64,000 nucleotides of DNA from a virus (Duplodnaviria; Caudoviricetes): positions 11,514-75,513 of IMG/VR virus record IMGVR_UViG_3300037477_000009; one strand, written 5' to 3'. The notes beneath the pieces were generated by a model. That model did not search any database. It was given only the letters and a program-made list of their open reading frames with translations, and had not been told where the DNA came from. This document shows positions 14,301-52,372 of the stretch, piece after piece. The stretch's first letter is position 1; every line of letters begins with the position of its first letter. Both the position numbers and the translations under genes were made by a program.

Positions 14301-17300
14301 CATCACCTGCCATTGGTGCAGATTCTTTTTCGGTTTCGGTTTCAGGCTTTTGCCATTTTTCCCTAATCTCTTTCTCTGCTTCTTCAATAGTCATCTTTCC
14401 AGAAGGATCGGTATCCGCATATGTTTCTGCTTCCGCTAATGCTTCTTTTAATGTTGGCTTCTGTAATATCTCGCTGCGAATTTGTGCAGGTGAAATCTCT
14501 TTTACTTTGCCAGATTCAGATTCTTTTTCAGTCTCCTTATCTTTTTCCTTTTGTGGCTCAGGTTTTTTTTCAGTTTCCTTCTCAGTTTCTTTTTCTGTTT
14601 CAGGTGCTTTCTCCTTCTCGGTTTCTTTCTCAGACTCCTTTTCTTTTTCAGTTTCTGTTGCAGGTGCTGGCTTTTCAACAATTGGATTTGGTACTTCCAT
14701 CTCCACTTCTCTTTCTACTTCATCATACACTTCATTGAATGCACCATCAGCAATTTCACCCATTGCATCAACGTGCATCTTTATCGCCAGGTCAAGTGCT
14801 AACTCAGGATTTTCTATAGTGATCAGCTTACCATCTCTTGTTTGTACAGTAACAGATTTCACATTTCCATTTTCATCCAGTGTAACAGGACTCTCATCGC
14901 CATCAGGTAATTTCAGATCACGATCATTGATCGCCTTCTCACCAACAGCAGCAACTTTATTTCCCTTGCCATCAATAACAAAGTAATGGCCATCCTCAAC
15001 CTTCAGGACTCCTGTTGCTTTTGTTCCATTGGGGAGAGTGACTGTGACTCTTGATCCTGTTGCTTGTTGGAGCGCAGGTTCGACTTTGATCTTAGTTTTG
15101 TTAGTACGGCCAGTTGGTACTTTTTCGGTAACCTTGCCAGTTTTAGTTGTTGTCGTAAATTCATAATTCTGTATTTTTTCTATTAGCGGTTCTATCAAGT
15201 GTGCCGCATTTGGATTTTTTTCTAACGCATCGTACAGTTCATTCTCTGCTGCTTTTAACTCATGCTCGTTTATATATTCAGCATTGTTCACTCTGTCAAC
15301 CACACCTTGTGTTGTATCGCTGACCTTGTGAGTAGGATCATACCATACCTGCCCTACTTTTGTTTTCGCACCAGGTGCTGTTGCCTGTTGTGCAGGTGCT
15401 GCTTGCGTTTTAGGTGCAGGATATTTTGAATTAATCTCATTCCACTTTTCCAACTTCGCTTCGCTATTTGCCAGTGCTTGCTTCGCCATTTCGTTACCAG
15501 GATCATGCAGCAAGGTTTCCTTCGCAAACTTTACATTGTTCTCAAAGAATTTTTTTGGATTGGCAAGAAACTCTTGCGCCTGTTTGACCTTCCACTTGGA
15601 ATCGCTATTCAAATCTTCATAATAACTATCAAAGTCAAACGCATCTTGCAGTTCTTTATCTCTTTTAGCTGCAAGCATCTCAGGTGTAACACCCTGTTCT
15701 TTTTCATCTTTGTTCGGTATTGGCATTGGTAAACGAGTGATCACTTCAGAACCTTTTTCTCTTGCTGCCTTTCTTGCTGCCCTTGCTTCCTTCAATTCTT
15801 TATCGGTCTGCTCAAGTATTTCCTGAGACTTCCCTCTCTTACCGAATGTGTGTAATTGAAAATTTCCTTTCTTATACTCATCAAGGAACTTCGGATTCTG
15901 CAATGCTGCTTCTGATTCACTCACTGATAAAACATATTGTTCGCCACTCGGATAAGTAAGAACAACATAATCACCTTTACCTTCTTTAACGAACTTCACC
16001 ATGTTGTCACCGATCTCTTTCGCTTTTTCTTCTGCTGCTTGTTTTAATCCAGGATCAGTTTGTGCTGCTGCCTGGCGAAGTGCATCTTGTTTTTGGAATG
16101 CCATTGAAGCATAGACTTTTTGCTGACCAGGTGTAAGTCCATATTTTTTCCCATTGGTTATTAATTGCTCTGAATGCTTCAGTGTGGCGGCCATTGATTC
16201 TGCTTCCTCCTGATTGATCACGCCACCACCAAACAGATGTGCAACGTATGCCTCTGCAAATGATTTTCCTCTGCGCTGCATGATGTCGAATACGAATTGA
16301 TCTCTCTGACCAGGCGCAACATTTTTGAAATCATTCTTCAGCATAAATGTTTTCACCTGCTTCTCAGTTTCCGCTTCCTCTCTCATGTGAGTCATCAAGT
16401 GACCACCACTTCCCATTAAAAACATTGGTGCAATATTCATCAGTGTGTGTTCTGCCCGATCCCAAGTCATAAGTTTGTAACCTTCCTGATATGGCTGGTC
16501 ATTTCTTATTGCTTGTTCAAATACATCCTGATGAAACTCTTGCGGAAACTCACCGACTAGTTCTTCTATACCACCCCAAAACAATCTCTTTCCAAGTGAT
16601 CCGGTAGTTAATCTGGCTGCTCTTGCTGATATATTTGCAATCTGTTCTGCTTTTAAAAATGGTGCGCCTTCAAGCATATATGCCCACATCAAATTAACCT
16701 GGCTATCGAATGTTCGCTTACCTGCTCTGTTTGCTTTTAATGCATCACCGCCACTCTCAGCGAAAATATCATCACGCATTCTTACTGCCATGTCACCTGT
16801 CTCCACCATCCATGCTGTAAGACCACCAGCTACTGCTGTCAACGCTGCTGGCGCACCCATACCACCAGTAGCGAATGTTACTGCTGCCGTTGCTGCCATA
16901 CTTGGTAGCATAAAGCCTGCGATATTACCTGTTGCCTTTGCGAGTTTATTCAGATCAAGATAATCTCTCCAGGAATTCAATTCAGTCCTACCAGTCTGAA
17001 TTGAATTCGCAAAATAATCTGCTGCCACTACACCAGTATCAAAATTTAAATTTGATGACCATGATCTTACAACACCAGCCATTGACTTGGCTGTTTGCCT
17101 GAATAAGTTTAGTGAAGGATTATAGGCAACACTATCCAATGCGTCTCTGAAATCCTTACCACCTGTATCAACATCTTTTAATGCCTGGCCATACACCTTC
17201 TGTATTTTTGCTTGCAGTTCAGGACTCGGCTGGAACTTATATTTTTTTTGCGCCTCTGCTAATTCTGCCCTTCCCACCTTTTCGATCTGTGCTGCTTGCA

Positions 17301-38160: not shown

Positions 38161-38680
38161 AAAAAGGGGTGCATAGTGTAGAAACAGTACGCACCCACCA
38201 TTAACCATTAAACCTTATCAATAAAAAGAGTTGATTTAAAACTCTTTACCTGGCTCAAAGGTAAAAGAGAATCACATAGAATTCCAAAAAAAAATCAGAG
38301 GCGATGTGGAAACACTGCCTCTGAAACCATTAAACAAAAATTGAAAAATCATCAATTTTCATTCATCTTAAAAGTGTATTCTAGGCTGACAAATGTGGAG
38401 ACATTTCCCTGATCCTAAAACCTTATCTTATGAGGCTGTGAAGGTAAGGTGGATTTCTATGGAATTCCAAAAAAAACCTGATGTGGAAACACCAGGTTTA
38501 AAACATATATAAAATGTAAACAAGATTGGTGGTGAAGGTACGACCAGGTTACATGGAATTCCAAATAAAAAAGACCAGGTGTAGAAACACCCGATCTTTC
38601 AGCTTTTGAGGCCTGATTAGTAGCGGTGCAAAAGTAGGTGGCCAGGCTATACGGCAATTATATAGAATTCCACAAAAAAG
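38161..38680 (-). ncRNA. Array of four putative small-RNA transcription units (promoter then hairpin/U-tract terminator) sharing a TGTTTCYACA hairpin apex
   Basis: Three TTTG-N21-TACCTT(TG/CA) promoters plus a TACTTTTG element; five hairpins with TGTRGARACA (plus-strand reading); no ORF. Confidence 0.6.
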
Positions 38681-38738
38681 TAACATCCAAGTAACAGGTA
38701 AGTAGCACTTTTCGTAACTTCAGGACAAACTATACAAT

Positions 38739-39005
38739 ATGCGAGCAAATATGCGATCAGCAGTCCTGCTGCTGACAAAAGACACCAAGACAGGTAAGCG
38801 TAAAGGATATGTTTACTACACCGGAGAGAAAGGCGCAGTACAGTGCGATGTGATCTTGGGATCAGATCAGAAGATAATCATCGCCACTGGTGTAAAAGCA
38901 ATCGGTAAGGTCTTAAACTACTATCTCAAGGAAGGATACGAGATCACCTCCAGTGAGCCACACAAGGATGCGCTGCCTCAAAACAAAGAGGCCAGTGTTA
39001 CCTGA
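38739..39005 (+). CDS. Hypothetical protein
   Basis: 88 aa; AAACTATACA leader. Confidence 0.6.
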   Translation: MRANMRSAVLLLTKDTKTGKRKGYVYYTGEKGAVQCDVILGSDQKIIIATGVKAIGKVLNYYLKEGYEITSSEPHKDALPQNKEASVT

Positions 39006-39466
39006 CCTCAACGGAAAGAATCCATAGCCAAGAGCCTGGTTATACCAAGAAGGACTGCGATTGTCGGAATGCCCGTTGCGCTTGGCCAGCACAGTTGGTT
39101 AGAAATGCAGGAAAATCACCAACACTTCCGATGCGCACGATCTGCATTGACTGTCCTCCTGGTAAAAGATGAGGCCAGTGGAGAACCACCAGCCTGTAAT
39201 ACCCGTTTGCTTGTTAATTGCTACCTGAAGTTACGAAGGATACAAATTATATCCTCAAGAACAAGTTATCCACATCGCTCACTTTATCAATCTTGCTCAA
39301 ATCCGCACAATCTATAAGAAAAGCACTAACATCGGCATAACAAATAGTAACAAAAAGTAGCAAATCGCACAACTTAGAACAACCTGGTAATCAGTTTAGA
39401 ATGTGGATATAATTTATGTCTATCGCTCACTCCGGTCAGTAACTTGCTGACTTAACCTGGAGTGCT

Positions 39467-39775
39467 ATGGAAAAACTTTTGCACCTCACCTTGTCCTCAC
39501 CAATGCCATTTGGCAAGTTCAAGAACCAGGCGATCAGAAATGTTCCATTATCCTACTGGACATGGCTCTACGACAACCCTGAAGCTGTAGATAACTGGTG
39601 GAACAGATCACTCAGGAAGTTCATCGAGAACAATATTGACCTGTTCCTGATCGAATGTGGTGGTGAGGTCACCGATGAGATCATCCTGGTGGTGCAAAGA
39701 ATACAACTCAACCTGATAAAAAGAAAGAAGCGATCTAAAAAACGCAATCACGTTGCAATGCCTGAGTTGTTCTAA
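39467..39775 (+). CDS. DUF3820-like / ExoX C-terminal-like domain protein
   Basis: MPFGKFKNQAIRNVPLSYWTWL motif. Confidence 0.6.
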   Translation: MEKLLHLTLSSPMPFGKFKNQAIRNVPLSYWTWLYDNPEAVDNWWNRSLRKFIENNIDLFLIECGGEVTDEIILVVQRIQLNLIKRKKRSKKRNHVAMPELF

Positions 39776-39887
39776 TCAAAACCGCAGAAAACCGCCATGC
39801 GGCTGTCTCCATCCGGTGATGAAACCTGCCTTCCTGGTTCAATCACGCAAATAACCGCAATATAATCCGCAAAAAAAGAGGCCACTA

Positions 39888-39912
39888 TAGAGAATAGCGG
39901 CCTGATTCTACT
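39888..39912 (-). terminator. Hairpin with adjacent A-run (U-tract on minus strand)
   Basis: AGGCCACTAT-AGAGA-ATAGCGGCCT preceded by AAAAAAAG. Confidence 0.45.
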
Positions 39913-40529
39913 TTAAAATTAAAAAAATGGATGGAAATATGCCAGTGCAAAGATATAGGTTATATCCTACAGGTGATACAGGCGATATGTAAAGAAAAAG
40001 CCTGATCTCAGGCCGTAAAGTAGCACCTGGTTTACTTTCGGCACTTTCGGCTGACTTTCGGGAAAGTAGTGTTATAGGCTGGATATCAATTATATCCTTA
40101 CTTAACTTGAAAACAGCCAATGAGGATAGGGAGAAGGGGTATTACCTGGTAACGTGGGGGCGGCGATCTCAAGCGGAATTCAAAAGCGCAGACCGAGTGG
40201 CATCCGGTTTCCAGCGATTCAAAAGTAAACCGAGATTTGTAACTTAATTCTCCAAGAACTAAATAGAATGTGAGTAAAAAGCTGATATTCAGCAAGGTAT
40301 TAAGGTAACATGGATCGTAGGTCACATCATAGGTAACTTCAGGTGGGGGAATAGTGCATCACTGCGCTCTGATCACCAGCAATACACATCATGGATCGCA
40401 CACTGGCTACTCGCATCATGGTTGCATCTGTATGCGGCTTCGCCTTTATCCCATCACCACTCACATCAGTGTATCACCATGCACCACTTGCATCATGGTT
40501 GCACACCACGTTCCACATGGAATTCCATG

Positions 40530-41641: not shown

Positions 41642-42076
41642 TTGATCATGTACATACCAGTGCAAGACTTCAGATATCTTAAACGATTTTGTTACTTCGA
41701 TACTACACTGGAGAAGTATAATCGCAAAGCCATGATGCGTCTCAATCGCACTCAGGTATTACTGCTGTATACACTCTATGATCTCACTCGTAAGAAACCA
41801 ACAGCAACAGCACCTTTCATTGGTAAATACTTTCTTGTATCAAAGAGCAAACGCAGTGCAAGATTTCATACAGTCAAACAATTGCACATACTGGAAGTAG
41901 CAGAACTTGTGTTGCATATCACTGATAAAAATGGATTCTATCATTGGTCATTAACACTGCTTGGTCACAATACACTCAAAGCAATTGAACGCATGATTCG
42001 CAAACAAGAAAATGTTTCAAAGATCAGTTCTCGATCCTCTGTCTTAACTCAATTATTCTCCTCTCAAAACAAGTGA
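41642..42076 (+). CDS. Hypothetical protein, possible winged-HTH
   Basis: 144 aa; LTLLGHNTL wing-like C-terminus. Confidence 0.45.
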   Translation: MIMYIPVQDFRYLKRFCYFDTTLEKYNRKAMMRLNRTQVLLLYTLYDLTRKKPTATAPFIGKYFLVSKSKRSARFHTVKQLHILEVAELVLHITDKNGFYHWSLTLLGHNTLKAIERMIRKQENVSKISSRSSVLTQLFSSQNK

Positions 42077-42428
42077 TAATACCTGGCTTTGTGTGTATTT
42101 GATTGTGACATTGCCAACACAGTATTGCGATGTTATCTGGATCATATCTTAGCAATGGAAATTTTGATTTCTCCAATAGATGATGGAAGTTGAATAACTG
42201 TGGCTCATGGATAATATTCTCACATCCTACTGCCTGACATTTGTTGCTCGTTCTATTGAGCCAGACATCCATGTAAAAATCAATATCATCTTGCTTCCTC
42301 TCACGAAACATATGTTGCTTCACTCTTACAGATGCTGATGTTGCACATCGTTTGCATCTCCCATGAGAGAAGATCAGTCTCATCTTGTGACATTCAATGC
42401 ACTCTTTTGGTTTCTGTCTGATAGCCAT
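42024..42428 (-). CDS. HNH endonuclease (NinG/Rap-like)
   Basis: CIECH...CKRC, CQAVGC...FHHLLEKSKFPLLRYDPDNIAILCWQCHNQIH. Confidence 0.8.
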   Translation of the reverse strand: MAIRQKPKECIECHKMRLIFSHGRCKRCATSASVRVKQHMFRERKQDDIDFYMDVWLNRTSNKCQAVGCENIIHEPQLFNFHHLLEKSKFPLLRYDPDNIAILCWQCHNQIHTKPGIITCFERRIIELRQRIEN

Positions 42429-42584
42429 TTTACCAATGAGAATTGATTGTTATAGCAAGATATAATTTATATCCATTCATTGATCAAAACGTGAGGTCGA
42501 TAGTTTTTTCCATAGAATTATGTGGATAACTTTTTGGATCTTTTTTTTGCTACGTTAAAGAATTGGATATCAAATATATCTGAG

Positions 42585-43023
42585 GCATACAGTCCACAGT
42601 AAAAACTTACACTGGCGGTTGATGCTATGTGGTATACAGTCCACAGCTATCTTTGTGGGAGTTCTTTGATAGGCCAGTTGGAAGCCAGATACCACGACAA
42701 AACGGTCAAACTCGCTCTGAGACTACGTTTCAGACGATCCTCACTCCGAAAATTGTCAGGTAGATCACACTTGATCACTGGTTGTACAACGGAAACAGCG
42801 CAAGACAGACTTGAAGAATACTCTAACGGAGATTCGCACAGACAGCAGCCACCACGTTTCATTTCTCATAGGAGAAAGTAAGCAAACGGATTCTGCAAAG
42901 ACTAAATGTTCACGATGTAATATCGTTCACTGTGTACGAAAATTTTTCACTGACACTGCGCCCTTCATTCACCAGCTTTCGATTTATCACTGCTGTGTGT
43001 GGTCTTGAGGCCAGATGATTGTA
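42585..43023 (+). ncRNA. Candidate long structured non-coding leader RNA
   Basis: Multiple hairpins, 13-bp direct repeat ATACAGTCCACAG, ends at the hammerhead; only weak ORFs. Confidence 0.4.
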
Positions 43024-43073
43024 TCGTACAATGGTAATCGCCATTGCTGATGAGACTATACAAGTCGAAACGG
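43024..43073 (+). ncRNA. Type III hammerhead ribozyme
   Basis: TCGTA | CAATGG-TAATCG-CCATTG | CTGATGA | GACT-ATACA-AGTC | GAAA-CGG: intact core, 6-bp stem I, 4-bp stem II, 4-bp stem III; GUA cleavage after 43028. Confidence 0.88.
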
Positions 43074-43095
43074 AAAAAAAATAAACTATACAGAT

Positions 43096-44088
43096 ATGTC
43101 AATGGAATTAATCAACATCGCAATTGCAAATGATGCAGATTTTTGGGTGAGTATGTCAGGTGGAAAAGATAGTGAAGCAACAGCACTCACACTGAGAGCA
43201 AATAACATCAGGATCGCTGGTGGAGTTCATGCTGATCTCGGTAGACTGGAGCATAAAGAATCAGGTGATCAATGTCAGCAGTTAGCTGCTGAGTTAGGCA
43301 TTCCACTGGTAGTAGTGAGAAGAACAGATGGTGCAGATATGTTAACTCACTGGAGAAACAGAATGCTGAAGTTGAAATCACAGGGTAAGATCAACGTAGG
43401 TGGTAAGACTACCCCATTCTGGAGTTCATCTGGCGCACGTTATTGCACCAGTGATATGAAGCGTGAGCCGATCAACAAACACTTCCGTAGTGTAAAAAAT
43501 AATCTCATCGTTTCGTGTGAGGGTATCAGAGCGGATGAAGGGGATGCGAGAAAATTCAAATCACCAATAGCAGTTAGATGGGCAATCACATCTGAGTATT
43601 ACATGAAGTTCGCTGGAGTTGCAGTAAGAGTGAAGCAGATAAAAAAATTGAATGATTCAGCAAAAGCAATGAAGTCATCCAATCCACTCAAAGCAAAAAA
43701 ATATAGCCAGATCGCAGTGTTGGAAAGAGAAGTGCTGGAGATTGTTCTACCAGTATACAATCCAAAAAAGCGTTTGGCTATTACATGGTTTCCAATTTTC
43801 AATTTCACTACTGATGAAGTGTGGGCAACAAGAGGACACACCAGTGCAGATTTGCAAGCAGCAAGAATTGAATTCAAGCAGACTGGTAAAGCAAATGACT
43901 GGAGATTTCATCCAGCATATGCGAAGGGAAACAACAGGGTATCATGTGTGTTCTGTGTGATGGGTTGCAGTAATGATCTCGCAGTAGGCGCAAAACATTA
44001 TCCTGAGTTACTCAAGGAAATGATTGCACTGGAGAAAGAAGGTAACGCAACATTCAAGGATGGTGAATCACTGGAGAGATATTTATAA
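43096..44088 (+). CDS. PAPS-reductase-like PP-loop (ANH) protein with Fe-S Cys motifs
   Basis: VSMSGGKDS, ARYCTSDMK, EGIRADE, PIFNFTTDEVW, HPAY...RVSCVFC. Confidence 0.85.
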   Translation: MSMELINIAIANDADFWVSMSGGKDSEATALTLRANNIRIAGGVHADLGRLEHKESGDQCQQLAAELGIPLVVVRRTDGADMLTHWRNRMLKLKSQGKINVGGKTTPFWSSSGARYCTSDMKREPINKHFRSVKNNLIVSCEGIRADEGDARKFKSPIAVRWAITSEYYMKFAGVAVRVKQIKKLNDSAKAMKSSNPLKAKKYSQIAVLEREVLEIVLPVYNPKKRLAITWFPIFNFTTDEVWATRGHTSADLQAARIEFKQTGKANDWRFHPAYAKGNNRVSCVFCVMGCSNDLAVGAKHYPELLKEMIALEKEGNATFKDGESLERYL

Positions 44089-44095
44089 GTTCAAT

Positions 44096-44135
44096 GGGTA
44101 GCAGTGTATGCTGTGAGATTCAAATCTAACTACCC
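44096..44135 (+). ncRNA. tRNA-like T-loop element 1
   Basis: GGGTAG/CTACCC; CAG-TGTATG-CTG; AGA-TTCAAA-TCT. Confidence 0.7.
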
Positions 44136-44167
44136 ACTAATATTTAATCAACAAAAAAAACAGACAA

Positions 44168-44647
44168 ATGAACACAAAAATTGAATGCCCAAAATGTGGC
44201 CGCACAAATTGTACAACAATTGATAACGAGCCATTGAGCCATGACAAAGAGTGGTTAACCAAAAATGGTATGCAGTTCGATAACCAGTTGTATGTATTCT
44301 TCCGGTGCAATGACTGCGACAATAGGTTTCGTGGTACACTGGAGATAATCACACAGAGTGAACACAAGGCACTCACTGGTCTACAGAGCAAGTTTCCAAA
44401 TGGCTTTGCTTCATGGATAGAAACGCATCACGAAGTTGTGGCCATTATAACCAACGAACTTAGAAAAAATGAAAGAGAAGGATCGGTTATCTGGAAGAGA
44501 CAAATCGAACAAGGCACTGGTGGTATGTTTGAGTTAGCAGAAGAGTGGACAGATGAATTTGAAAAGAAGAACATAGATAGAGAATGGGATGGTGAATTCT
44601 TTGAAGAGGTTGAAGATTTCTGTATCGCAAAAGACAAAGCAAATTAA
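44168..44647 (+). CDS. Zinc-ribbon-containing hypothetical protein
   Basis: CPKCG...CNDC. Confidence 0.7.
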   Translation: MNTKIECPKCGRTNCTTIDNEPLSHDKEWLTKNGMQFDNQLYVFFRCNDCDNRFRGTLEIITQSEHKALTGLQSKFPNGFASWIETHHEVVAIITNELRKNEREGSVIWKRQIEQGTGGMFELAEEWTDEFEKKNIDREWDGEFFEEVEDFCIAKDKAN

Positions 44648-44653
44648 TCACAC

Positions 44654-44697
44654 TGGCTGCATCGCTATAGGCACACCATCGAATGGTAATGCAGCCA
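44654..44697 (+). ncRNA. tRNA-like T-loop element 2
   Basis: TGGCTGCAT/ATGCAGCCA; ACCA-TCGAA-TGGT. Confidence 0.7.
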
Positions 44698-44730
44698 CTA
44701 ACAAATTTCAAAAACAAAAAAGCAAACACA

Positions 44731-44970
44731 ATGAAAAGTTTAATCGCAATCGCAGCAGTAATCATGTTATCATCATTCACCAATGGTGATCATTGCAAGG
44801 GTAAAAAGAAAGATGGCACACCATGTCAATCTACAATCGTAAGCAAAGCCACTGGCTATTGCAATGCACACAATCCAAACGCAAAGAAGTGTGTGTTCAT
44901 CAAGAAAGATGGAGAGCGTTGTAAGATGACTGTAAAGGCCACAGAGACACTTTGCAGATTCCACAAGTAA
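44731..44970 (+). CDS. Small secreted protein with two C-x9-C...C-x2-H repeats
   Basis: Signal peptide MKSLIAIAAVIMLSSF; CKGKKKDGTPC...CNAH and CVFIKKDGERC...CRFH. Confidence 0.7.
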   Translation: MKSLIAIAAVIMLSSFTNGDHCKGKKKDGTPCQSTIVSKATGYCNAHNPNAKKCVFIKKDGERCKMTVKATETLCRFHK

Positions 44971-44977
44971 ATGGTAA

Positions 44978-45038
44978 GGGTAGCAGAATAGGATCGCCAG
45001 TGCGATCTTATTGCTGTGAGATTCGATTCTAACTACCC
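44978..45038 (+). ncRNA. tRNA-like T-loop element 3
   Basis: GGGTAG/CTACCC; long arm AATAGGATCGC-CAGT-GCGATCTTATT; AGA-TTCGAT-TCT. Confidence 0.75.
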
Positions 45039-45072
45039 ACTAACAATTATTCAATCTTAAAATTTAATCGAC

Positions 45073-45810
45073 ATGACAACAGATCAGTTATTGCAAGCAG
45101 CATTTTATGCACTCAATGAAATTCCAAACAAAGAGATCAGTGGTGAATTCAAAAACAGTTATGCACTGGCAGCAGCACTTGGTAATCATCTTAGGAAAGA
45201 AGATGATGCATCGTATCTCCTGACGTTCACATTGCGTACCACATACAAGGATGGAGTGAAGGACAATGATTACACTGAAATATTCTGTGATGAATCAGAA
45301 GGTCGCACACCAAAGCAACAGGCACATGAAAGGATGGAAATGTTACGCAGCCAGTATGATTCCATGTATAGCAAGACAGAGATGTACACTTGGAACATCG
45401 CTAAGATCACAAGCACCAGCGAACATTACAACTTAGGTAATGAGCCAGCACCAGTGCAACCAGCAGATGATCTCGTTACACTGGAGAGAGGCGCAGAGAT
45501 AAAGCAAGAGCAACCATCACTTACGTTTGAAGTAAGATCATCACATGGCACACTCACTGCTGCTAAATCAAATGGTGCAGTTGTGAATTGTGTGCTGAAT
45601 GATAACGAAGATGAAGATGGACACTCACTACTTGATATCACCAAGTTCGATGTGAAAGAGTTTCGCACCTATCATAACATCGGCATCGATGCAATGCCTG
45701 ATAGTATCGACATACTCGATCTTGGTTACTGGTATGATAACGGAATTGGATTATACGAATCACCGGATGGTGACTGGAGAGAGATGATGATCAACATCGC
45801 AGATGACTAA
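45073..45810 (+). CDS. Acidic hypothetical protein
   Basis: 245 aa. Confidence 0.7.
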   Translation: MTTDQLLQAAFYALNEIPNKEISGEFKNSYALAAALGNHLRKEDDASYLLTFTLRTTYKDGVKDNDYTEIFCDESEGRTPKQQAHERMEMLRSQYDSMYSKTEMYTWNIAKITSTSEHYNLGNEPAPVQPADDLVTLERGAEIKQEQPSLTFEVRSSHGTLTAAKSNGAVVNCVLNDNEDEDGHSLLDITKFDVKEFRTYHNIGIDAMPDSIDILDLGYWYDNGIGLYESPDGDWREMMINIADD

Positions 45811-45819
45811 ATGATCTCA

Positions 45820-45862
45820 GGGTAGCAGAACGAAAGTTGCTGTGGATCGAATCCAACTACCC
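45820..45862 (+). ncRNA. tRNA-like T-loop element 4
   Basis: GGGTAG/CTACCC; CAGAAC-GAAA-GTTGCTG (GNRA loop); GG-ATCGAAT-CC. Confidence 0.75.
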
Positions 45863-45895
45863 ACTAAATATTTAATCAACAAAAACAAACGACAA

Positions 45896-46435
45896 ATGAC
45901 AGTTAATCCAAGTCTCACTCCAGAGACTTTAAAAGCAACAGATGAAATGATAGATGCAGCCAATGCGCTGATCTTAGCAACAGCCTATGCCAGTGTAGTA
46001 ACTCCAGTGGTAGAAAAAATCCACCAAGATGTGCTAAACGAAAATCGTTATGCATGGGATATGAAAATTGTATTCTGTGGCCGTAGATCGGAGAGTGACA
46101 AAGTAAACTTCCTGAAAGAGAATGGTGAGTATTGCAGCAAGCCATCACTTGTCCAACTTACAGGCAGCAAGAACTTCAATGACTACTTCGTTCAGGTAGC
46201 AAAAAAACTTGCACTGGCTGGCTTTGAAGTGAATGATGATGTATGCCCAATGCTGGAAGCAATAGATTTAGAATGGAAGGCGAAGAAGGTGCTTATCGAT
46301 ACCATGCAACCAACTACTGGTTTCAAGTACGATGACTTCTTCAAGACAACGAAGTGGAAAGAACATATCGAGAGGTATGTTGATCTACTCTTGAGGTGGC
46401 TTGCACCACATCTCAGGAACACACTGGTAAAATAA
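45896..46435 (+). CDS. Hypothetical protein
   Basis: Start reassigned to MTVNPS after the element leader. Confidence 0.7.
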   Translation: MTVNPSLTPETLKATDEMIDAANALILATAYASVVTPVVEKIHQDVLNENRYAWDMKIVFCGRRSESDKVNFLKENGEYCSKPSLVQLTGSKNFNDYFVQVAKKLALAGFEVNDDVCPMLEAIDLEWKAKKVLIDTMQPTTGFKYDDFFKTTKWKEHIERYVDLLLRWLAPHLRNTLVK

Positions 46436-46462
46436 TTTAATCAATCTTAAAATTTAATCGAC

Positions 46463-46765
46463 ATGAACAAAGTAGCATTTAAAGAAACAGACATTTTTTG
46501 GCAACCGGAAATCACCGAAGATGGTGATGGGGTAATCGGCCATGAAGATGAAGAGTATTTATTTTCATTTGAAGTATGGAGTACGTTAAGAAATCTTTTA
46601 AAGGATTATCCTAACTGTGAACCAGTGGAACACGAAAGAAGTGAGTTTGATATAGAGTATCCAAATTTTGTAGATGAGGTCGCATTCAATTCGCCTCCAG
46701 ACAGATCAACAGAAGATGAGTTGATCATCTTGGAGTTGTTATGGAAGTGCGAGATGGAATCATAA
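46463..46765 (+). CDS. Acidic hypothetical protein
   Basis: 100 aa; leader TCAATCTTAAAATTTAATCGACATG identical to that of 45073. Confidence 0.65.
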   Translation: MNKVAFKETDIFWQPEITEDGDGVIGHEDEEYLFSFEVWSTLRNLLKDYPNCEPVEHERSEFDIEYPNFVDEVAFNSPPDRSTEDELIILELLWKCEMES

Positions 46766-46771
46766 GATCAC

Positions 46772-46818
46772 TGGACTGGCTGGTTAATTCGCAGTAGCAT
46801 TTCAATTGCACCAGTCCA
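46772..46818 (+). ncRNA. tRNA-like T-loop element 5
   Basis: TGGACTGG/CCAGTCCA; CTG..CAG arm (swapped relative to CAG..CTG); GCA-TTTCAAT-TGC. Confidence 0.7.
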
Positions 46819-46851
46819 CTAAACAATTCAATCATTTAAAATTTAATCGAC

Positions 46852-47220
46852 ATGACAACAAAGCAGACAATCGACATCACCCCAAGATGGGCAGAGTTAT
46901 TACCAGCAATGCTTCAATTGCACAGGCAGTACAATAAGAAGCGTAAGCCTACACTGGAAGATGCAAAGTGGTATGAAACATTGCTTGCAGAATTCAAGAC
47001 GATGGCATTCGCTGCTGACAAGTGGAATGCACATGAGAAACTCAACACTGGTGAGGTAAAGACAGATCATTACAACACACTGGTGAAGATCACTGGTGGT
47101 AGTTATGATAGCATCGGCAGATACTTCTATGCGCACATCGACCAATTGAATCGTGCATGGATCAACATACCAGCAGGAGTGTATGATGCAAACAAATTTG
47201 AGATCGTAGCAGGTCAATAA
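46852..47220 (+). CDS. Hypothetical protein
   Basis: IDITPRWAELLPAM...MAFAADKWN. Confidence 0.7.
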   Translation: MTTKQTIDITPRWAELLPAMLQLHRQYNKKRKPTLEDAKWYETLLAEFKTMAFAADKWNAHEKLNTGEVKTDHYNTLVKITGGSYDSIGRYFYAHIDQLNRAWINIPAGVYDANKFEIVAGQ

Positions 47221-47228
47221 GATCACAC

Positions 47229-47275
47229 TGGACTGTTCAGGTTAACTCGCTGTGGCACTCGATGCAAGCAGTCCA
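47229..47275 (+). ncRNA. tRNA-like T-loop element 6
   Basis: TGGACTG/CAGTCCA; CAG..CTG arm; GCA-CTCGA-TGC. Confidence 0.7.
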
Positions 47276-47307
47276 CGAAATATTTAATCACAAAAATTAA
47301 ATGACAA

Positions 47308-48036
47308 ATGCCGACACAAAAAGAAATGGAAACTTATCCAGACACTTGCGATAAGTTAATCGTATCGCTTTACGATTCATCAGAAGCATGGCCACAGCCA
47401 TATGCTGATGCAGGGTATCCTGTAATGTTTTGGGATATGAATCACGAAGGTGATATCATTCACCACTGGTCAACATTCATGGACAACATTGAAGAAGCAA
47501 TCGAAGAAGGTTATTATCCGTATGGCCTACTGGCAGCACCACCATGCGATCATTTCGCTTCCAGTGGTGCAAGGTGGTGGAAAGAGAAAGATGCCAGTAC
47601 AGAGCGTGTAGGCCACAAGGACATTGCCGAAAACAATGTTGACTTGGGAGTGCTGCTTGCTGAGATACCGATGCTGATATTGGATCAGGTAGAACAACAC
47701 TTCGGTTATGAATTCAAGTGGTGGGCATTAGAGAATCCTGTTGGCCGTATTGAGAAAATGTGTCCAGACTTAAAGCCATACAGAAAGATGATGTTCGATC
47801 CATGTGACTATGGCGATCCATATACCAAGAAAACTATTCTATGGGGAACATTCAATCCCGATCTTCCCAAGACACCAGTAGAGCCAGAGTACGTTACCTA
47901 TGTGAAGAAGGATGGATCGCTCACAAGGTTTGCACCACAGTTTGGTCGCACTGGTGGTAAGTCTGCAAAGACAAAAGCGATCAGGAGTAAAACACCAAGC
48001 GGATTTGCCAAAGCGTTTTTCCAAGCAAATCAATAG
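47308..48036 (+). CDS. DNA cytosine-C5 methyltransferase-like protein
   Basis: Catalytic LAAPPCDHF, ALENPVG, FDPCDYGDPYTKKT; degenerate SAM motif (SLYDSSEAW). Confidence 0.75.
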   Translation: MPTQKEMETYPDTCDKLIVSLYDSSEAWPQPYADAGYPVMFWDMNHEGDIIHHWSTFMDNIEEAIEEGYYPYGLLAAPPCDHFASSGARWWKEKDASTERVGHKDIAENNVDLGVLLAEIPMLILDQVEQHFGYEFKWWALENPVGRIEKMCPDLKPYRKMMFDPCDYGDPYTKKTILWGTFNPDLPKTPVEPEYVTYVKKDGSLTRFAPQFGRTGGKSAKTKAIRSKTPSGFAKAFFQANQ

Positions 48037-48052
48037 GCCAGGTAGATGATGA

Positions 48053-48093
48053 TGGACTGCGATCAGGTCGTGGAGTTCAAACTCGACAGTCCA
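48053..48093 (+). ncRNA. tRNA-like T-loop element 7
   Basis: TGGACTG/CAGTCCA; CGAT-CAG-GTCG; GAG-TTCAAA-CTC. Confidence 0.7.
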
Positions 48094-48123
48094 CTAAATA
48101 TTTAATCAACAAACGACAAGACA

Positions 48124-48993
48124 ATGGACTTAACTATTTTTTCATTTGGCGCAGGGCAAGAATCAACTTACCTGTTGCATAAGCTGGTCAGCGATCCAGC
48201 GTTCAGAGCCAAGCACATCAAAGGCCACTTGCTGGTTGTAGGATCAGACACTGGCGATGAGCATCCGCATACTTATCAGAATGTGGAGAAGCTAAAGTTG
48301 TTCTGCAAGTACAACGATGTTGAATTCTATTGGGTAACTCCTGACATGGGATATCACACGAACACATGGCAGAGTCTCACTGGTCAGTACAAACGCAACA
48401 GTTCAATTGGCTCTGCTGCATTCAAACAGACTTGCACTGATAACCTGAAGGTGAAAGTGGTTGACAACTTTGTTGAAGGCTGGTTGAAGAAACAACTTGG
48501 CAAGCCTGATGCAAAGCGTAAGACGATCTTCAAAGGGATCACTGACATCAGGCTCATACTTGGATTTGCGAAAGGTGAGGAATCAAGGACAACCAGTGGC
48601 AACAAATTTGATGCAGTGTGGAAGAAGAAGTCAATGGTGCGTTACTTCCCACTCATTGAAGATGGGATCACTCGTCAGGATTGTATTGACTACAATACGA
48701 TCAACATCCCATACACTGTGTGGCCATCCAATTGTATGCGCTGTTTCTATCAGGCAGATCAGGAAGTGTTGTGGTTGCACAGAAACTTTCCTGAGAAGTT
48801 CCTTGAGTGGTACACGATGGAGCAAGCGAAGCTGACCAAGTACGCTGGTGCTGATAAGAACTATGGAGTGTATGGCAAGGTCTTACTGATGCAGAAGCTG
48901 GAGAAGGCCACTGATCTGTATGGTCACTGGAGTGATGAGCAACTTGATGAATACAAGTTCTCACATGGCCACTGTATAAAGTCAAAATATTGA
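48124..48993 (+). CDS. Second PAPS-reductase-like PP-loop (ANH) protein
   Basis: FSFGAGQES, SDTGDEHPHTY, CTDNLKV, GFAKGEESR, FPLIEDGITRQDC, SNCMRCFY. Confidence 0.75.
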   Translation: MDLTIFSFGAGQESTYLLHKLVSDPAFRAKHIKGHLLVVGSDTGDEHPHTYQNVEKLKLFCKYNDVEFYWVTPDMGYHTNTWQSLTGQYKRNSSIGSAAFKQTCTDNLKVKVVDNFVEGWLKKQLGKPDAKRKTIFKGITDIRLILGFAKGEESRTTSGNKFDAVWKKKSMVRYFPLIEDGITRQDCIDYNTINIPYTVWPSNCMRCFYQADQEVLWLHRNFPEKFLEWYTMEQAKLTKYAGADKNYGVYGKVLLMQKLEKATDLYGHWSDEQLDEYKFSHGHCIKSKY

Positions 48994-49016
48994 TCACTAT
49001 AAAAACTAAAAGACAA

Positions 49017-49301
49017 ATGACAAAGCGAATTCCCATCCCAAGAGTTGATCTTAAAAGAAAGCTGGTCTGCGTATACTCTACGCAGCTTTCCATGTTTGAG
49101 GTTTGCCAGATGACAAACAAAGGCACAGTCTCAAAGATGTTCAAGCCACAGGTTGCATTCACTGATGACGTACACAAAGCCTTCAAGCGATTCACTGTGC
49201 CATTCGCACGTTTCAGAATCGTGGCTGGAGTGAAGCGTGATCAGTGTAAGACATGGAATGAATGGATCGAAAGAGTATGGCAAAAAGCAAATCAGAAATA
49301 G
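49017..49301 (+). CDS. Hypothetical protein
   Basis: Start reassigned to MTKRIP. Confidence 0.55.
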   Translation: MTKRIPIPRVDLKRKLVCVYSTQLSMFEVCQMTNKGTVSKMFKPQVAFTDDVHKAFKRFTVPFARFRIVAGVKRDQCKTWNEWIERVWQKANQK

Positions 49302-49327
49302 TATTTTTAAATTTTAAAACTATACAA

Positions 49328-49600
49328 ATGGCAGCGAAACATTATCAGCTTCTTTCACTTCCACAGATCACTTCAGCTAATATCGATAAGAGGGTTGCAG
49401 ACAAGCAAGAAGAAATCAGGTTGAAGTTACCGGACATCTTCACCCATTTACCATACGCTGAAGAAGTAGGCAAGGATTTGCTTTACTTAGTGGCATTAGA
49501 AAATGCAAGGACACTAATGAACACAATTGATTACAGAAATTATGAGAAGGCAGGTAAGCCAGTGGATTACGAAACCTGGCTACAACAGAATGCTGAATGA
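49328..49600 (+). CDS. Hypothetical protein
   Basis: Start MAAKHY after AAACTATACA leader. Confidence 0.6.
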   Translation: MAAKHYQLLSLPQITSANIDKRVADKQEEIRLKLPDIFTHLPYAEEVGKDLLYLVALENARTLMNTIDYRNYEKAGKPVDYETWLQQNAE

Positions 49601-49610
49601 TCACAGGAGT

Positions 49611-49651
49611 GGCTGCGAATTAACTTGTCGTGGGTTTCGATACCGACAGCC
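49611..49651 (+). ncRNA. tRNA-like T-loop element 8
   Basis: GGCTG/CAGCC; CGA..TCG arm; GGT-TTCGAT-ACC. Confidence 0.7.
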
Positions 49652-49687
49652 GTCTAAATATTTAATCACAAAAAAACAAATGACAAA

Positions 49688-49912
49688 ATGGAAAAAGAAA
49701 AGAAAGTCTCAGTAGGGCAACAGTTGGTTATTAACCACACTGACAAAGCGATCCTTGCGTATGAAGCATGGAGAAGAGCCACACAGATAGAGTGGTCGCA
49801 TAAGTACCAGTGCTATAAAAGATTTTTCGGTAAAGCGTTTACCAAAAATCCAAAGACACCACAACAATTGTATAACATCTACAAAAAAGAAAGCAATGGC
49901 AAAATCAGTTAA
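49688..49912 (+). CDS. Hypothetical protein
   Basis: 74 aa. Confidence 0.6.
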   Translation: MEKEKKVSVGQQLVINHTDKAILAYEAWRRATQIEWSHKYQCYKRFFGKAFTKNPKTPQQLYNIYKKESNGKIS

Positions 49913-50195
49913 AGGTCTTGAGGACTATGGAATAAAAAATCTTGAAGATTTTCTTGACAGGCTGGAGTTATTTATGTTTCATGGCGGCACTGATATCTTA
50001 AACGCTATGAGTAAAACGCACCTAACAGAATATATGTGCAGGAAGTATTTGAATGAAGCTGTTGAAAAAGGATTCTATAAAAAGTCATGGCTGCGTGGTG
50101 ATGCAAATAAAAAGAACACTCCAATGTCAATGCGGTATCTACACAAATATTATTACACTAAAATTAAAGACCATGCAACCGATCAGGGAACTTAA
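49896..50195 (+). CDS. Hypothetical protein, possible winged-HTH
   Basis: 99 aa. Confidence 0.55.
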   Translation: MAKSVKGLEDYGIKNLEDFLDRLELFMFHGGTDILNAMSKTHLTEYMCRKYLNEAVEKGFYKKSWLRGDANKKNTPMSMRYLHKYYYTKIKDHATDQGT

Positions 50196-50439
50196 TGAAA
50201 GAGAAAACATCGTTCTTGAATACTGTCAGGAACACGCACAGGATATCATCTGGATATACAAGGTTGTTGAGTATGCAACCGAGCAAGGGATCGCATTAAA
50301 AGAAAGCAAGGCTGGTGCGATCCTGTTGCAGTTCTCCAGATGTGGATGGCTTAACAGGTTACCACGATCATCCAGAGGATGGGGATTAGGATGGGATGTG
50401 CAAGCGTACACTGTCAAGCCTATTGTAATTCCGAAATGA
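50173..50439 (+). CDS. Hypothetical protein, possible winged-HTH
   Basis: Start reassigned to MQPIRE. Confidence 0.55.
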   Translation: MQPIRELNERENIVLEYCQEHAQDIIWIYKVVEYATEQGIALKESKAGAILLQFSRCGWLNRLPRSSRGWGLGWDVQAYTVKPIVIPK

Positions 50440-50445
50440 TTCACA

Positions 50446-50487
50446 GGACTGGTTGCTTCAGGCAAGGCATCGAATGCCAGCCAGTCC
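50446..50487 (+). ncRNA. tRNA-like T-loop element 9
   Basis: GGACTGG/CCAGTCC; TTGC-TTCAG-GCAA; GGCA-TCGAA-TGCC. Confidence 0.72.
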
Positions 50488-50519
50488 ACTAATATTTAAT
50501 CACAAAAACTAAAAGACAA

Positions 50520-51035
50520 ATGAACAAAGAAACAAGGGATCGAGTTGCTAAACTGCAAAGCGATCTCAATGTAGCGCACAGGAATCTTGGTAACCTTCAA
50601 GAAGAACTCTTCCTTATCATAGAGGTAGAACGGGAAGCGGAAGCTAGTGACCAAATTTTTGAGATACTACAAAGCGCATCAAAATTAGTTATGAACGCTG
50701 GCACTGACCTTGAGGTATCGGTCAGTGTTCTTGGTGGCATCGTTAATCACCAAGAGCAACCGAAAGTTCTCAAGACATCGTTCAACGATCAAGAGAAGAA
50801 GGAATTGCATGGAGGCTTTCATGGTAATATTCGTTTTGATTTACTCAACGACCAAAACGAAAGAGTGCTATCATGTTACAGAGCAACGATACCAGGTGGC
50901 CTTGATTTTATGAATGCGAAGATGGAAGAACACAAAAGCACATGGTTTACTGTTCATATAATGAAAAAGACTGGCGGTAAGTTCAGGTCTGTTGCTCATT
51001 TAGAAACAGAAGCAGGTACAATATTCCAACATTAA
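50520..51035 (+). CDS. Hypothetical protein (coiled-coil N-terminus)
   Basis: 171 aa. Confidence 0.65.
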   Translation: MNKETRDRVAKLQSDLNVAHRNLGNLQEELFLIIEVEREAEASDQIFEILQSASKLVMNAGTDLEVSVSVLGGIVNHQEQPKVLKTSFNDQEKKELHGGFHGNIRFDLLNDQNERVLSCYRATIPGGLDFMNAKMEEHKSTWFTVHIMKKTGGKFRSVAHLETEAGTIFQH

Positions 51036-51046
51036 AAAAACATACA

Positions 51047-51394
51047 ATGAAAAAAGAATTCAAGTATGAGGCCATCATGTATTTCACTGGCAAGCGGAAG
51101 TCCTTCACTGATTATATCGACATCTTTGCAGCCAATGATTCAGTAGCACTCGCAACGGCTACTGAATACCTGTTAGAGACAGAAGGTGCAAGTGCTATTC
51201 ACTTCCGTAAGGTCGGCAACAAGAAATGGAGAGCCGTTAACCAAAGTGAAGTGATGTCGCATGACTTCAGAGACATGAAGTATTACATCGATTACGTTAC
51301 CGAATGCATCGAAAACAGGAGAAAGCCAATGACGTTTGAGAAGTACAATGGATTACTCGATGGTGAGAATTGCATAATGGGTACTATCATGTAA
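51047..51394 (+). CDS. Hypothetical protein
   Basis: 115 aa. Confidence 0.65.
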   Translation: MKKEFKYEAIMYFTGKRKSFTDYIDIFAANDSVALATATEYLLETEGASAIHFRKVGNKKWRAVNQSEVMSHDFRDMKYYIDYVTECIENRRKPMTFEKYNGLLDGENCIMGTIM

Positions 51395-51396
51395 CC

Positions 51397-51438
51397 GGAA
51401 GTGAAGTGGTGCGCTGAGTTCGATTCTCAGCCACTTCC
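51397..51438 (+). ncRNA. tRNA-like element 10 (acceptor + T-arm minihelix)
   Basis: GAAGTGG/CCACTTC 7-bp stem, 4-nt linker, CTGAG-TTCGATT-CTCAG canonical T-arm. Confidence 0.72.
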
Positions 51439-51463
51439 CAAGAATTCTATATCTTAGTGACTA

Positions 51464-52372
51464 ATGAGATCGAAGTCACTTAACCTACCAAAGCGAATTG
51501 CAATCGCAAGAAAATTCCTTAAAGGATCGTCAGTCAGAGAACTTGCAAAAGAATACAGCCTGGCTGAACAAACCATTGCTGGCTACTTGCGCAATCACAT
51601 TGATAAAAACGGAAGAGTGATCTCTGCGCCACCAGCGATGTCGAAGGAATTGCAGCTACCAGGTGAAAAGTGGAAGGTAGTACCAGTGCCATCCAAGAAC
51701 AAGATAGAAGCCAGTAATCTTGGCCGTATCAAGAGCCACGCATATGGTAGGGAGAGGATACTTGATGGCAATATAAAGTTCGGTTACAGATCGATCTGCT
51801 ACCGAGTAAAGAATAATAAACGAAGAGATGAACTAAGCCATATGCTTGTTGCAAAAGCCTGGCTTGAGCCAAGACCATCAACAAGGCACGTTATCGTTCA
51901 TCTGGATCACAACAGGTGGGATAACAGTCCAGCGAATCTGAAGTGGATGATCAAGCGTGATGCACAACGTCACGCACGACATTCGCCTTACATGGAGATA
52001 CTACGCAAACGTGCAAGAGCGATGCCTACCGAACAGGCGAACAAAGCCAGGTATGGTAAGCTGTCTCGTAAGGAGGTCATCAGCATCAAGCAGAAGATAC
52101 ACAATGGCAGAAGGATAATTGATATCGCAAAGGAATACGGGATCGCAGAGATGACTGTATCACGCATTCATCGGGGTATCATATGGGCAGATGTTCTTCC
52201 GCAATTAACCAGGAAGAAAAAGGAGTTGAAAATAGTGCCAGTGGAAACAAGGATCAAGATCATCAATGCACTTCGTGCTGGTATGCAGGGAAAGGTAGCT
52301 GCTGCACTGTATGGCTTCGATCCTACCACCATCTCCCGTATTAAAAAATCGTTACAACATGGAAACGATTAA
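51464..52372 (+). CDS. NUMOD4/HNH homing-endonuclease-like protein with several HTH repeats
   Basis: EKWKVVP...EASNLGRIKS (NUMOD4), HMLVAKAW...HLDHNRWDNSPANLKW (HNH), HTH repeats. Confidence 0.8.
   Translation: MRSKSLNLPKRIAIARKFLKGSSVRELAKEYSLAEQTIAGYLRNHIDKNGRVISAPPAMSKELQLPGEKWKVVPVPSKNKIEASNLGRIKSHAYGRERILDGNIKFGYRSICYRVKNNKRRDELSHMLVAKAWLEPRPSTRHVIVHLDHNRWDNSPANLKWMIKRDAQRHARHSPYMEILRKRARAMPTEQANKARYGKLSRKEVISIKQKIHNGRRIIDIAKEYGIAEMTVSRIHRGIIWADVLPQLTRKKKELKIVPVETRIKIINALRAGMQGKVAAALYGFDPTTISRIKKSLQHGND

Follow-up and report, generated by a model that had tools for sequence, protein, structure and literature searches.

The stretch of DNA considered here (the window, 64,000 nucleotides (nt) in length, to which all positions refer) comprises bases 11514-75513 of a 75.5-kb virus record in IMG/VR (IMGVR_UViG_3300037477_000009), and the subject of this report is an operon-like run of 16 plus-strand genes within it (g1 to g16, 43096-51394) that is preceded by a candidate hammerhead ribozyme and interrupted by ten folded intergenic elements, E1 to E10. 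Genes for a portal protein, a large terminase (TerL), a primase/helicase, a DnaD-like loader and a tyrosine integrase are present in the window, and on this gene content the genome is that of a temperate, tailed phage. For the cargo genes of the operon the closest homologs are found in prophage-like segments of the genomes of Chitinophagaceae, Sphingobacteriales and other Bacteroidota. Bacteroidota-type promoters (TTTG...TAnnTTTG) as well as canonical terminators occur in the phage outside the operon spacers, and both observations point to a likely host among the Bacteroidota.

All 16 open reading frames (ORFs) of the run have positive codon scores in frame, better in every case than out of frame, which bears out the figure of about 16 genes given in an initial annotation of the window. 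A stable fold occupies ten of the 14 spacers, and four gene junctions, of 11-27 nt, have no element.

Structure and covariation of the intergenic elements

E1 to E9 are Y-shaped three-way junctions, and E10 is an acceptor/T-arm minihelix. The plan common to E1-E9 consists, from the 5' side, of a closing stem (P1) of 6-9 base pairs (bp), a variable hairpin (P2) directly adjoining P1, a linker of 0-3 nt that is mostly UG, a second hairpin (P3) of 3-5 bp, a purine-rich linker of 1-3 nt, the returning strand of the closing stem (P1') and an (A)CUAA tail. P1 measures 7 bp in six of the ten elements and 6, 6, 8 and 9 bp in the others, and UCRA is retained in all ten P3 loops though the stems differ. 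The placement of the elements is equally regular: P1 begins 6-9 nt after the stop codon of the preceding gene, except at E7 (16 nt) and E10 (2 nt), and P1' of E1-E9 ends 30-34 nt before the next ATG, the equivalent slot before g1 being taken by the hammerhead.

A covariance model (R1) seeded with seven copies of the element recovered E3, which lay outside the seed, at 30.8 bits and E2 weakly, and when scanned against both strands of the whole 75.5-kb genome it found nothing beyond the operon spacers and matched the plus strand only. On the alignment fitted to this model P1 is 94.6% paired, both sides change in five of its seven pairs, and the covariation score was reached by none of 500 shuffles; registers slid out of place pair at 26-52%. 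The curated P1 and P3 stems comprise 107 Watson-Crick pairs, two G-U pairs and no A-C pair, and the plus strand folds better than the minus strand in nine of the ten elements. This pair composition and strand-specific folding argue for RNA in the sense orientation, and the G-U pairs in P1 of E8 are possible on the plus (RNA-sense) strand alone. The elements are real, RNA-type structures. When the full transcript was folded locally, the probability of P1 exceeded 0.8 in seven of the ten elements, and the translation-initiation regions were open, with an unpaired probability of 0.69 vs 0.44 +/- 0.07 in coding sequence.

Between fold and start codon lie recurring leaders. E1 is followed by CUAA and the TATTTAATCA leader, of which the operon holds exactly six copies, and AAATTTAATCGACATG is present in three copies vs 0.12 expected. 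The two recurring leaders noted in the initial annotation are therefore upheld, as is the cassette-like shape that it ascribed to each unit, given the strand-specific covarying folds and their fixed geometry with respect to stop and start codons.

The 9-nt P2 loops of E5 (46783-46791), E6 (47241-47249) and E8 (49619-49627) have in common a near-palindromic RUUAAY core. The E5 loop is complementary to that of E8 over a length of 6 nt, and the core of E6 to itself, so that kissing between loops, or the binding of a dimeric protein, is conceivable.

Features of the operon and its surroundings, in window coordinates, with the basis of each assignment
Feature	Coordinates	Strand	Basis or remark
Long non-coding leader and divergent control region	42429..43023	+	Upstream of operon
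Type III hammerhead ribozyme	43024..43073	+	Rfam RF00008, strict descriptor
g1, PAPS-reductase-like PP-loop protein, 330 amino acids (aa)	43096..44088	+	PF01507; phrog_424 at 3.6e-29
E1, Y element (P1 7 bp, P2, P3 with UCAA loop)	44095..44136	+	R1 48.1 bits
g2, acidic Zn-ribbon protein, 159 aa	44168..44647	+	
E2, divergent Y (P1 9 bp, weak P2, P3 with CGA loop)	44654..44697	+	Fold; R1 9.1 bits
g3, small basic protein, 79 aa, two CCCH-type Zn knuckles	44731..44970	+	PF09329 at 3e-10, DUF5763
E3, Y element with long P2 hairpin, then type B leader	44978..45038	+	R1 30.8 bits
g4, acidic ORFan, 245 aa, isoelectric point (pI) 4.4	45073..45810	+	
E4, Y element	45820..45862	+	R1 44.4 bits
g5 and g6 (g6 acidic, pI 4.1)	45896..46765	+	27-nt type B leader between them, no element
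E5, Y element, 9-nt P2 loop of GUUAAU type	46772..46818	+	R1 51.4 bits
g7, 122 aa	46852..47220	+	
E6, Y element	47229..47275	+	R1 49.1 bits
g8, DNA methyltransferase-like protein, 242 aa	47308..48036	+	phrog_757 at 2.4e-43
E7, Y element	48053..48093	+	R1 47.8 bits
g9 (second PAPS-reductase-like protein), g10 and g11	48124..49600	+	phrog_424 at 4.5e-20; short spacers, no element
E8, Y element, two G-U pairs in P1	49609..49653	+	R1 58 bits
g12, g13 and g14, small overlapping genes	49688..50439	+	Codon scores
E9, Y element	50446..50487	+	R1 33.7 bits
g15 and g16	50520..51394	+	Codon scores
E10, minihelix (7-bp outer stem, 5-bp/7-nt UUCGAUU arm, no P2, different tail)	51397..51438	+	
g17, HNH homing-endonuclease-like gene, helix-turn-helix (HTH) and NUMOD4 domains	51464..52372	+	Ends punctuated array

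Hammerhead ribozyme and leader upstream of the first gene

The hammerhead lies on the coding strand, with its 3' end 19-22 nt upstream of the ATG of g1. Its stems I, II and III have 7, 4 and 4 bp, stem III being the open one, and its core is complete, with CUGAUGA at 43047-43053, GAA at 43067-43069 (the core motif as a whole being written CUGAUGA...GAAA) and the A15.1-U16.1 pair; cleavage is predicted after a GUA triplet, between 43028 and 43029. A strict descriptor of the motif gave this one match, vs 0.033 expected per shuffled 64-kb window over both strands. RF00008 aligns end to end at 43021-43076 with 30.2 bits (E = 0.0035 in 11 kb), a low score that is due to the short stem III and non-consensus loops. 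We regard the ribozyme as very probably genuine: of the self-cleaving hammerhead proposed initially, the complete core and the three helices stand, although the score lies under the Rfam cut-off.

The 667 nt from 42429 to 43095 are non-coding, as the ORFs found there have negative codon scores in every frame. The leader of about 440 nt folds only marginally better than its shuffles (z = -1.73), and the structured RNA that had been read into it is not established, the evidence for structure being unconvincing. It opens with two 13-nt direct repeats (ATACAGTCCACAG; 42587-42599 and 42634-42646) that share with four of the elements the sequence CAGTCCAC, which occurs eight times, on the plus strand only, vs 1.6 expected. 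A Bacteroidota-type -7 box, TATCTTTG, is found on the plus strand at 42648-42655, and a divergent -7 box on the minus strand at 42578. The interval 42587-42668 also holds overlapping alternative hairpins (TGTGG / CCACA / TGTGGG) followed by a T-rich tail, a layout which, adjoining the divergent -7 boxes, resembles that of an attenuator or operator.

Transcription signals

No TAnnTTTG box was found in any operon spacer, the only one nearby on the plus strand being that at 42648, and sigma-70-like sites are not in excess in the spacers. None of the elements passed a terminator scan, as they do not combine a GC hairpin with a U-run; their tails read (A)CUAA and continue into mixed A/U. A phage RNA polymerase able to read a private promoter was not recognisable in the phage. 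With neither host promoter nor terminator consensus in the spacers, a polycistronic message is likely, and the four junctions without an element, being too short for a promoter, imply co-transcription. The simplest reading would be one long message started at a promoter upstream. The initial annotation had drawn one plus-strand transcript from about 42585; the composition of the spacers favours the single transcript, whereas the start near 42585 we only infer. Conversely, an arrangement in which each gene has its own promoter and the elements are plain terminators is at odds with spacers that carry no host consensus for either signal.

Elsewhere in the window, a gene-poor stretch (38474-40014) has on its minus strand at least five strong terminators of the hairpin and U-run type, with a Bacteroidota-type promoter at 38263 beside the cluster, and it may represent a set of small transcription units. 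Among the virion genes there is also a 4,422-aa ORF (5380-18648, minus strand) that has no match in Pfam, NCBIfam or PDB; one of its blocks shows conservation with a PHROG profile of 3,925 positions whose function is unknown, and its look-alikes are polyvalent ART/acetyltransferase proteins of phages. It was considered as a phage RNA polymerase and rejected, its lone DxDGD motif (residue ~2750) probably being due to chance and no family match having been found.

Relatives and conservation

Across phage records, IMG/VR, GTDB, metagenomes of the JGI and a set of 5.8 billion proteins, the sole useful relative was a 1,363-nt contig, L035, from JGI sample 3300037609. Relative to the window its g1 is 6.1% diverged and its g2 30% diverged, and yet E1 shows no change in 42 nt and E2 a single change, in the P2 loop, among the 39 nt covered. 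The elements thus appear to be conserved islands around a g2 that is changing fast or being exchanged, and this one relative conforms to the expectation of swappable cassettes, in that it keeps E1 and E2 around a diverged gene. Within g2 itself (L035:833-1318 vs 44168-44647) the divergence is mosaic: the N-terminal Zn-ribbon half is 87-97% identical, the C-terminal half has 52-70% identity with indels, and the flanking elements are conserved.

Beyond this contig the search for relatives was largely negative. In a large protein database g1 matched one fragment at 97%, from L035, and otherwise nothing above 50% identity. Homologs of g1 at about 50% identity reside in other phages with ordinary terminator/promoter spacers, which indicates that the modules belong to the operon and not to the genes. 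A database search with g4 returned no homologs (an ORFan). Among 50,697 phage records, megablast detected nothing that matches the region; the tblastn matches of g1 and g8 were confined to unrelated phages and did not exceed 39% identity; and a scan of IMG/VR with g1 yielded no relative. A TerL search of IMG/VR retrieved relatives at about 33% only, without element and without hammerhead, and the same search of GTDB genomes nothing; 53 neighbourhoods of PAPS-reductase genes in GTDB contained no element.

Candidate matches to the element were rejected in each case. An exact 18-mer from the element's edge occurred in seven contigs, all of them carrying one unrelated conserved sequence without the fold; a match among the GTDB genomes (L058) proved to be coding sequence; a 29-bit match, the only one in 101 Chitinophagaceae genomes, lay within a 780-aa ORF; and a pattern scan of metagenomes produced 69 chance matches, none with the fold. 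A separate observation concerns L034, an 83-kb metagenomic phage-like contig with a homolog of g1, which has two long non-coding gaps, at 12484-12709 (226 nt) and 14677-15172 (496 nt), whose predicted folds are very stable.

Genes of the operon

The cargo named in the initial annotation is largely present: there are two PAPS-reductase-like PP-loop proteins (phrog_424), a DNA methyltransferase (phrog_757) and acidic proteins, the last being four in number (g2, g4, g6 and g8, with pI values of 4.1-5.1). Homologs of g1 come mostly from prophages of Bacteroidota, and the tblastn matches of g8 carry annotations as DNA or C5 methylases. The supposed secreted Cys-rich peptide corresponds to g3, a small Cys-rich protein with tandem CCCH zinc knuckles (zf-primase/DUF5763-like) whose hydrophobic N-terminal segment was also seen; it may, however, be anchored in the membrane instead of being secreted. 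If family names alone are followed, the cargo may have an anti-defence character.

Two genes of the HNH endonuclease type flank the operon, one on the minus strand (42024-42428) and the other, on the plus strand (51464-52372), being g17. The product of g17 has a NUMOD4 domain and several HTH domains, and the gene directly follows the canonical minihelix, E10 being situated just 5' of it.

RNA punctuation as the favoured explanation

The explanation that we favour, tentatively, is that the elements are modules of RNA punctuation, by which a polycistronic message is split or insulated and each unit is furnished with a uniform open leader. The region would be one long plus-strand message of a temperate phage of Bacteroidota type with its punctuation built in. 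The hammerhead would cut off an untranslated leader of about 400-600 nt, and the ten folds would divide the 16 genes into ten units, an eleventh unit, with the HNH gene, following after E10. A structure-specific host endonuclease would recognise the folds on the RNA, and the likeliest cutters would be RNase P on the 5' side and/or RNase Z on the 3' side, after the CCA-less tail, because the closing stem has 7 bp, the arm nearest the 3' end has a UCRA loop and E10 is a canonical minihelix. At a minimum the folds would protect RNA ends and insulate. The outcome would be units that are separate, or separately stable, each with an open A/U-rich leader of about 30 nt. Translation initiation in Bacteroidia ignores the Shine-Dalgarno (SD) sequence and depends on open A-rich leaders and on leader structure (PMC6847099, PMC3155529), which is why a uniform open leader would matter, and standard open leaders of this kind would suit SD-blind ribosomes. 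Being repeated and conserved, the modules could double as homology islands for the exchange of genes.

Several points weigh against punctuation by cleavage. The cleavage, the transcript ends and the co-transcription that it supposes are all deduced from sequence. The score of the hammerhead, 30.2 bits, is below the Rfam gathering score of 48.5, and no relative spans its site. No independent members of the Y-shaped family were found, its covariation coming from paralogs in one genome and one near-identical contig, and P1 is poorly predicted in context for E7 (0.31) and E8 (0.07). The conserved ATTTAATC block is not equally far from the ATG in the two types of leader, a placement that would be compatible also with a promoter or with a site for protein binding.

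The resemblance to tRNAs is similarly partial. It extends to three features, a 7-bp closing stem, a UCRA loop and a tail without CCA, and in regard to the first of these the elements do possess an acceptor-like stem of about 7 bp that covaries. A canonical T-arm would have a 5-bp stem and a 7-nt UUCRANN loop and would directly adjoin the closing stem on its 3' strand, and such an arm is found in E10 only; the P3 arm of E1-E9 has a stem of 3-5 bp, a loop of 3-7 nt with UCRA, and a linker of 1-3 nt to P1'. The coaxial stack of acceptor and T-arm is what RNase P and RNase Z read, and as modelled such a stack would not be favoured in E1-E9 by this linker at P3 and by P2 abutting P1. ARAGORN called no tRNA at the elements, its most permissive modes picking out the E10 region alone, and weakly; Rfam gave no tRNA-clan match at E <= 10 over 11 kb, and nothing when E8 was submitted alone; and a match of E10 to a tRNA-Sec fragment, at 10.3 bits, is not significant. 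What survives of the ten tRNA-like elements in the initial annotation is ten folded elements with a tRNA-like outline, and since neither the tRNA finder nor Rfam recognises a tRNA in them, the term 'tRNA mimic' would describe their shape only. The notion that E10 was copied from the 3' end of a host tRNA was dropped, as no such source turned up in 401 sampled Bacteroidota genomes.

Alternative explanations

The strongest rival, unlikely in our estimation, holds that these are transcription cassettes akin to the PeSLs of T4-type phages. In each, the Y fold would attenuate or terminate transcription of the upstream gene and the (A)CTAA-TATTTAATCA block would serve the next gene as promoter or operator, with the repeated modules driving gene shuffling by homologous recombination. 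The layout matches, with a stop codon, a stem-loop, an AT-rich conserved block, an ATG and flanking ORFans (PMC2839356, PMC4122927), and the mosaic in L035, with conserved modules around a diverged gene, is in keeping with it, as are the variable distance of the ATTTAATC core from the ATG and the occurrence of CAGTCCAC in both the upstream control region and four elements. Yet the spacers show neither the Bacteroidota -33/-7 consensus nor an excess of sigma-70 sites, no element has a U-run despite the canonical terminators elsewhere in the phage, and no phage RNA polymerase that might serve a private promoter is recognisable. Moreover, the -33 position would land inside covarying stems, the slot before g1 holds a ribozyme and not the (A)CTAA-TATTTAATCA block, and a conserved three-way junction with a UCRA loop exceeds what a terminator needs. 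A distinctly less probable suggestion dispenses with the nuclease: the Y folds, left uncleaved, would act as structural insulators that block pairing of the upstream coding sequence with the next leader, so keeping a landing pad of about 30 nt open to SD-independent initiation, and they might in addition tune coupling or re-initiation, as a terminating ribosome might melt a P1 lying 6-9 nt past the stop codon. This would account for the tight spacing of 30-34 nt between P1' and ATG and for the open leaders, and it accords with the control of Bacteroidia translation by leader structure (PMC6847099). It leaves unexplained, however, the conserved UCRA loop, the Y shape and the (A)CUAA tail; four junctions do without any element; and the hammerhead in an equivalent slot suggests that cutting is the design principle.

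Classic intercistronic processing sites have a stable structure followed by an A/U tract, and stem-loop stabilisers are familiar from bacterial and T4 operons. Sites of the RNase E/G/Y type, with the cut made in A/U-rich single strand 3' of a fold that merely protects the 3' end of the upstream mRNA, are a possibility to which we assign a low probability: an A/U-rich single-stranded tract (CUAAAUAUUUAAUCA) does come directly after the stable structure in six of ten spacers, but a simple hairpin would suffice for that purpose, and the conserved junction and loop motif imply recognition specific to the fold. It is very improbable that the folds form a new class of processing signal, encoded by the phage to hijack the tRNA-maturation enzymes of its host, from which RNase P and RNase Z excise some ten anticodon-less, tRNA-like RNAs of 40-60 nt per transcript, splitting the message into single units, and that these RNAs then divert, as decoys or sponges, those toxins of host defence that attack the acceptor end of tRNA. 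A cargo with a flavour of DNA modification and anti-restriction would be in keeping with such a role. The chance that the Y fold is a new class of small self-cleaving ribozyme, with the three-helix topology of a type III hammerhead, appears slighter again. The order of helices is the same, with an outer stem enclosing two hairpins, as is the slot when compared with the ribozyme before g1, but the junctions are short and loosely conserved (UG; AA, GA or UA), the hammerhead core is for the most part missing, Rfam gave no match to a known ribozyme family, and the best-conserved feature is a hairpin loop instead of a junction core. Least probable of all would be a function at the level of DNA, with the elements as folded single strands resembling integron attC sites into and out of which a recombinase moves cassettes. 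The cassette-like layout, in which every unit has one structured site, might be taken in its favour, as might the mosaic seen in L035 and the tyrosine integrase encoded by the phage. That integrase, however, is 11 kb away and by appearance of an ordinary phage type, the sequence contains neither an attC-type core (GTTRRRY) nor R/L box symmetry, the G-U pairs and the conserved loop indicate RNA, and four junctions have no site.

Comparison with known systems

The punctuation of mitochondrial transcripts by tRNAs offers one precedent for the arrangement that we favour; tRNAs and the t-elements, the latter reportedly described in plant mitochondria by Forner et al. in 2007, are folds at which RNase P and RNase Z are presumed to cut, releasing mRNAs. 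As in that system, the folds here are compact and lie between cistrons, each closed by a stem of about 7 bp and furnished with a T-loop-like arm. They differ in that E1-E9 have neither a canonical T-arm nor the stacking geometry of the tRNA top half and go undetected by tRNA models, and in that the operon belongs to a bacterial virus, where cutting is a prediction.

A closer parallel within phages was provided by Perreault et al. (2011), who reported single prophage genes, ardA among them, with several hammerheads at their flanks, and proposed that long phage transcripts are cut into gene-length mRNAs (PMC3088659). In those clusters, the strand that encodes the phage's accessory genes, some of them for anti-restriction, also carries self-cleaving RNA, either in front of these genes or between them, and the operon described here likewise opens with a hammerhead. 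Here, however, there is one ribozyme slot, and the other ten are filled by a Y fold or minihelix that looks non-catalytic and is absent from Rfam; the role envisaged for the earlier clusters in phages is, for its part, a proposal. The PeSLs of T4-type phages combine a consensus host promoter with a proven terminator hairpin (PMC2839356, PMC4122927). They share with the present modules a repeated intergenic unit of about 80-100 bp, made up of structure, AT-rich block and start codon, that flanks ORFans in a plastic region and is conserved around divergent genes; the elements of this operon differ in lacking a promoter consensus and a U-run and in having a covarying three-way junction instead.

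Engineering has arrived at comparable parts, among them insulators of the RiboJ ribozyme type and polycistrons processed through tRNAs or Csy4. A ribozyme placed just 5' of the first start codon, and processing elements between cistrons, standardise leaders there and would do so here; whereas those parts are engineered, the operon would be a natural counterpart.

Our literature search found no publication on phage operons punctuated by tRNA-like or Y-shaped folds. The initial annotation had presented the operon as an undescribed system, a description to be tempered by the precedents of ribozyme-flanked prophage genes (PMC3088659) and PeSLs (PMC2839356, PMC4122927) and sustained by the novelty of the Y-shaped family. 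What is new is this family, together with the way in which a single operon uses it ten times and combines it with a hammerhead at the front.

Implications

The purpose of self-cleaving ribozymes in bacteria and phages has been open since they were discovered beside prophage genes in 2011. That a hammerhead and ten covarying folds of non-catalytic appearance occupy equivalent slots in one operon argues for a common job, the definition of mRNA units, which phages could accomplish by means of a ribozyme or by borrowing the nucleases of their host. With ten natural variants and their compensatory changes, this 9-kb operon is a test bed for what RNase P, RNase Z or other nucleases of the Bacteroidota require, as well as for the standardisation of leaders in a phylum whose ribosomes ignore SD sequences and for the promotion of gene shuffling by repeated modules. 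It is also a potential source of natural insulator parts for synthetic biology in the Bacteroidota.

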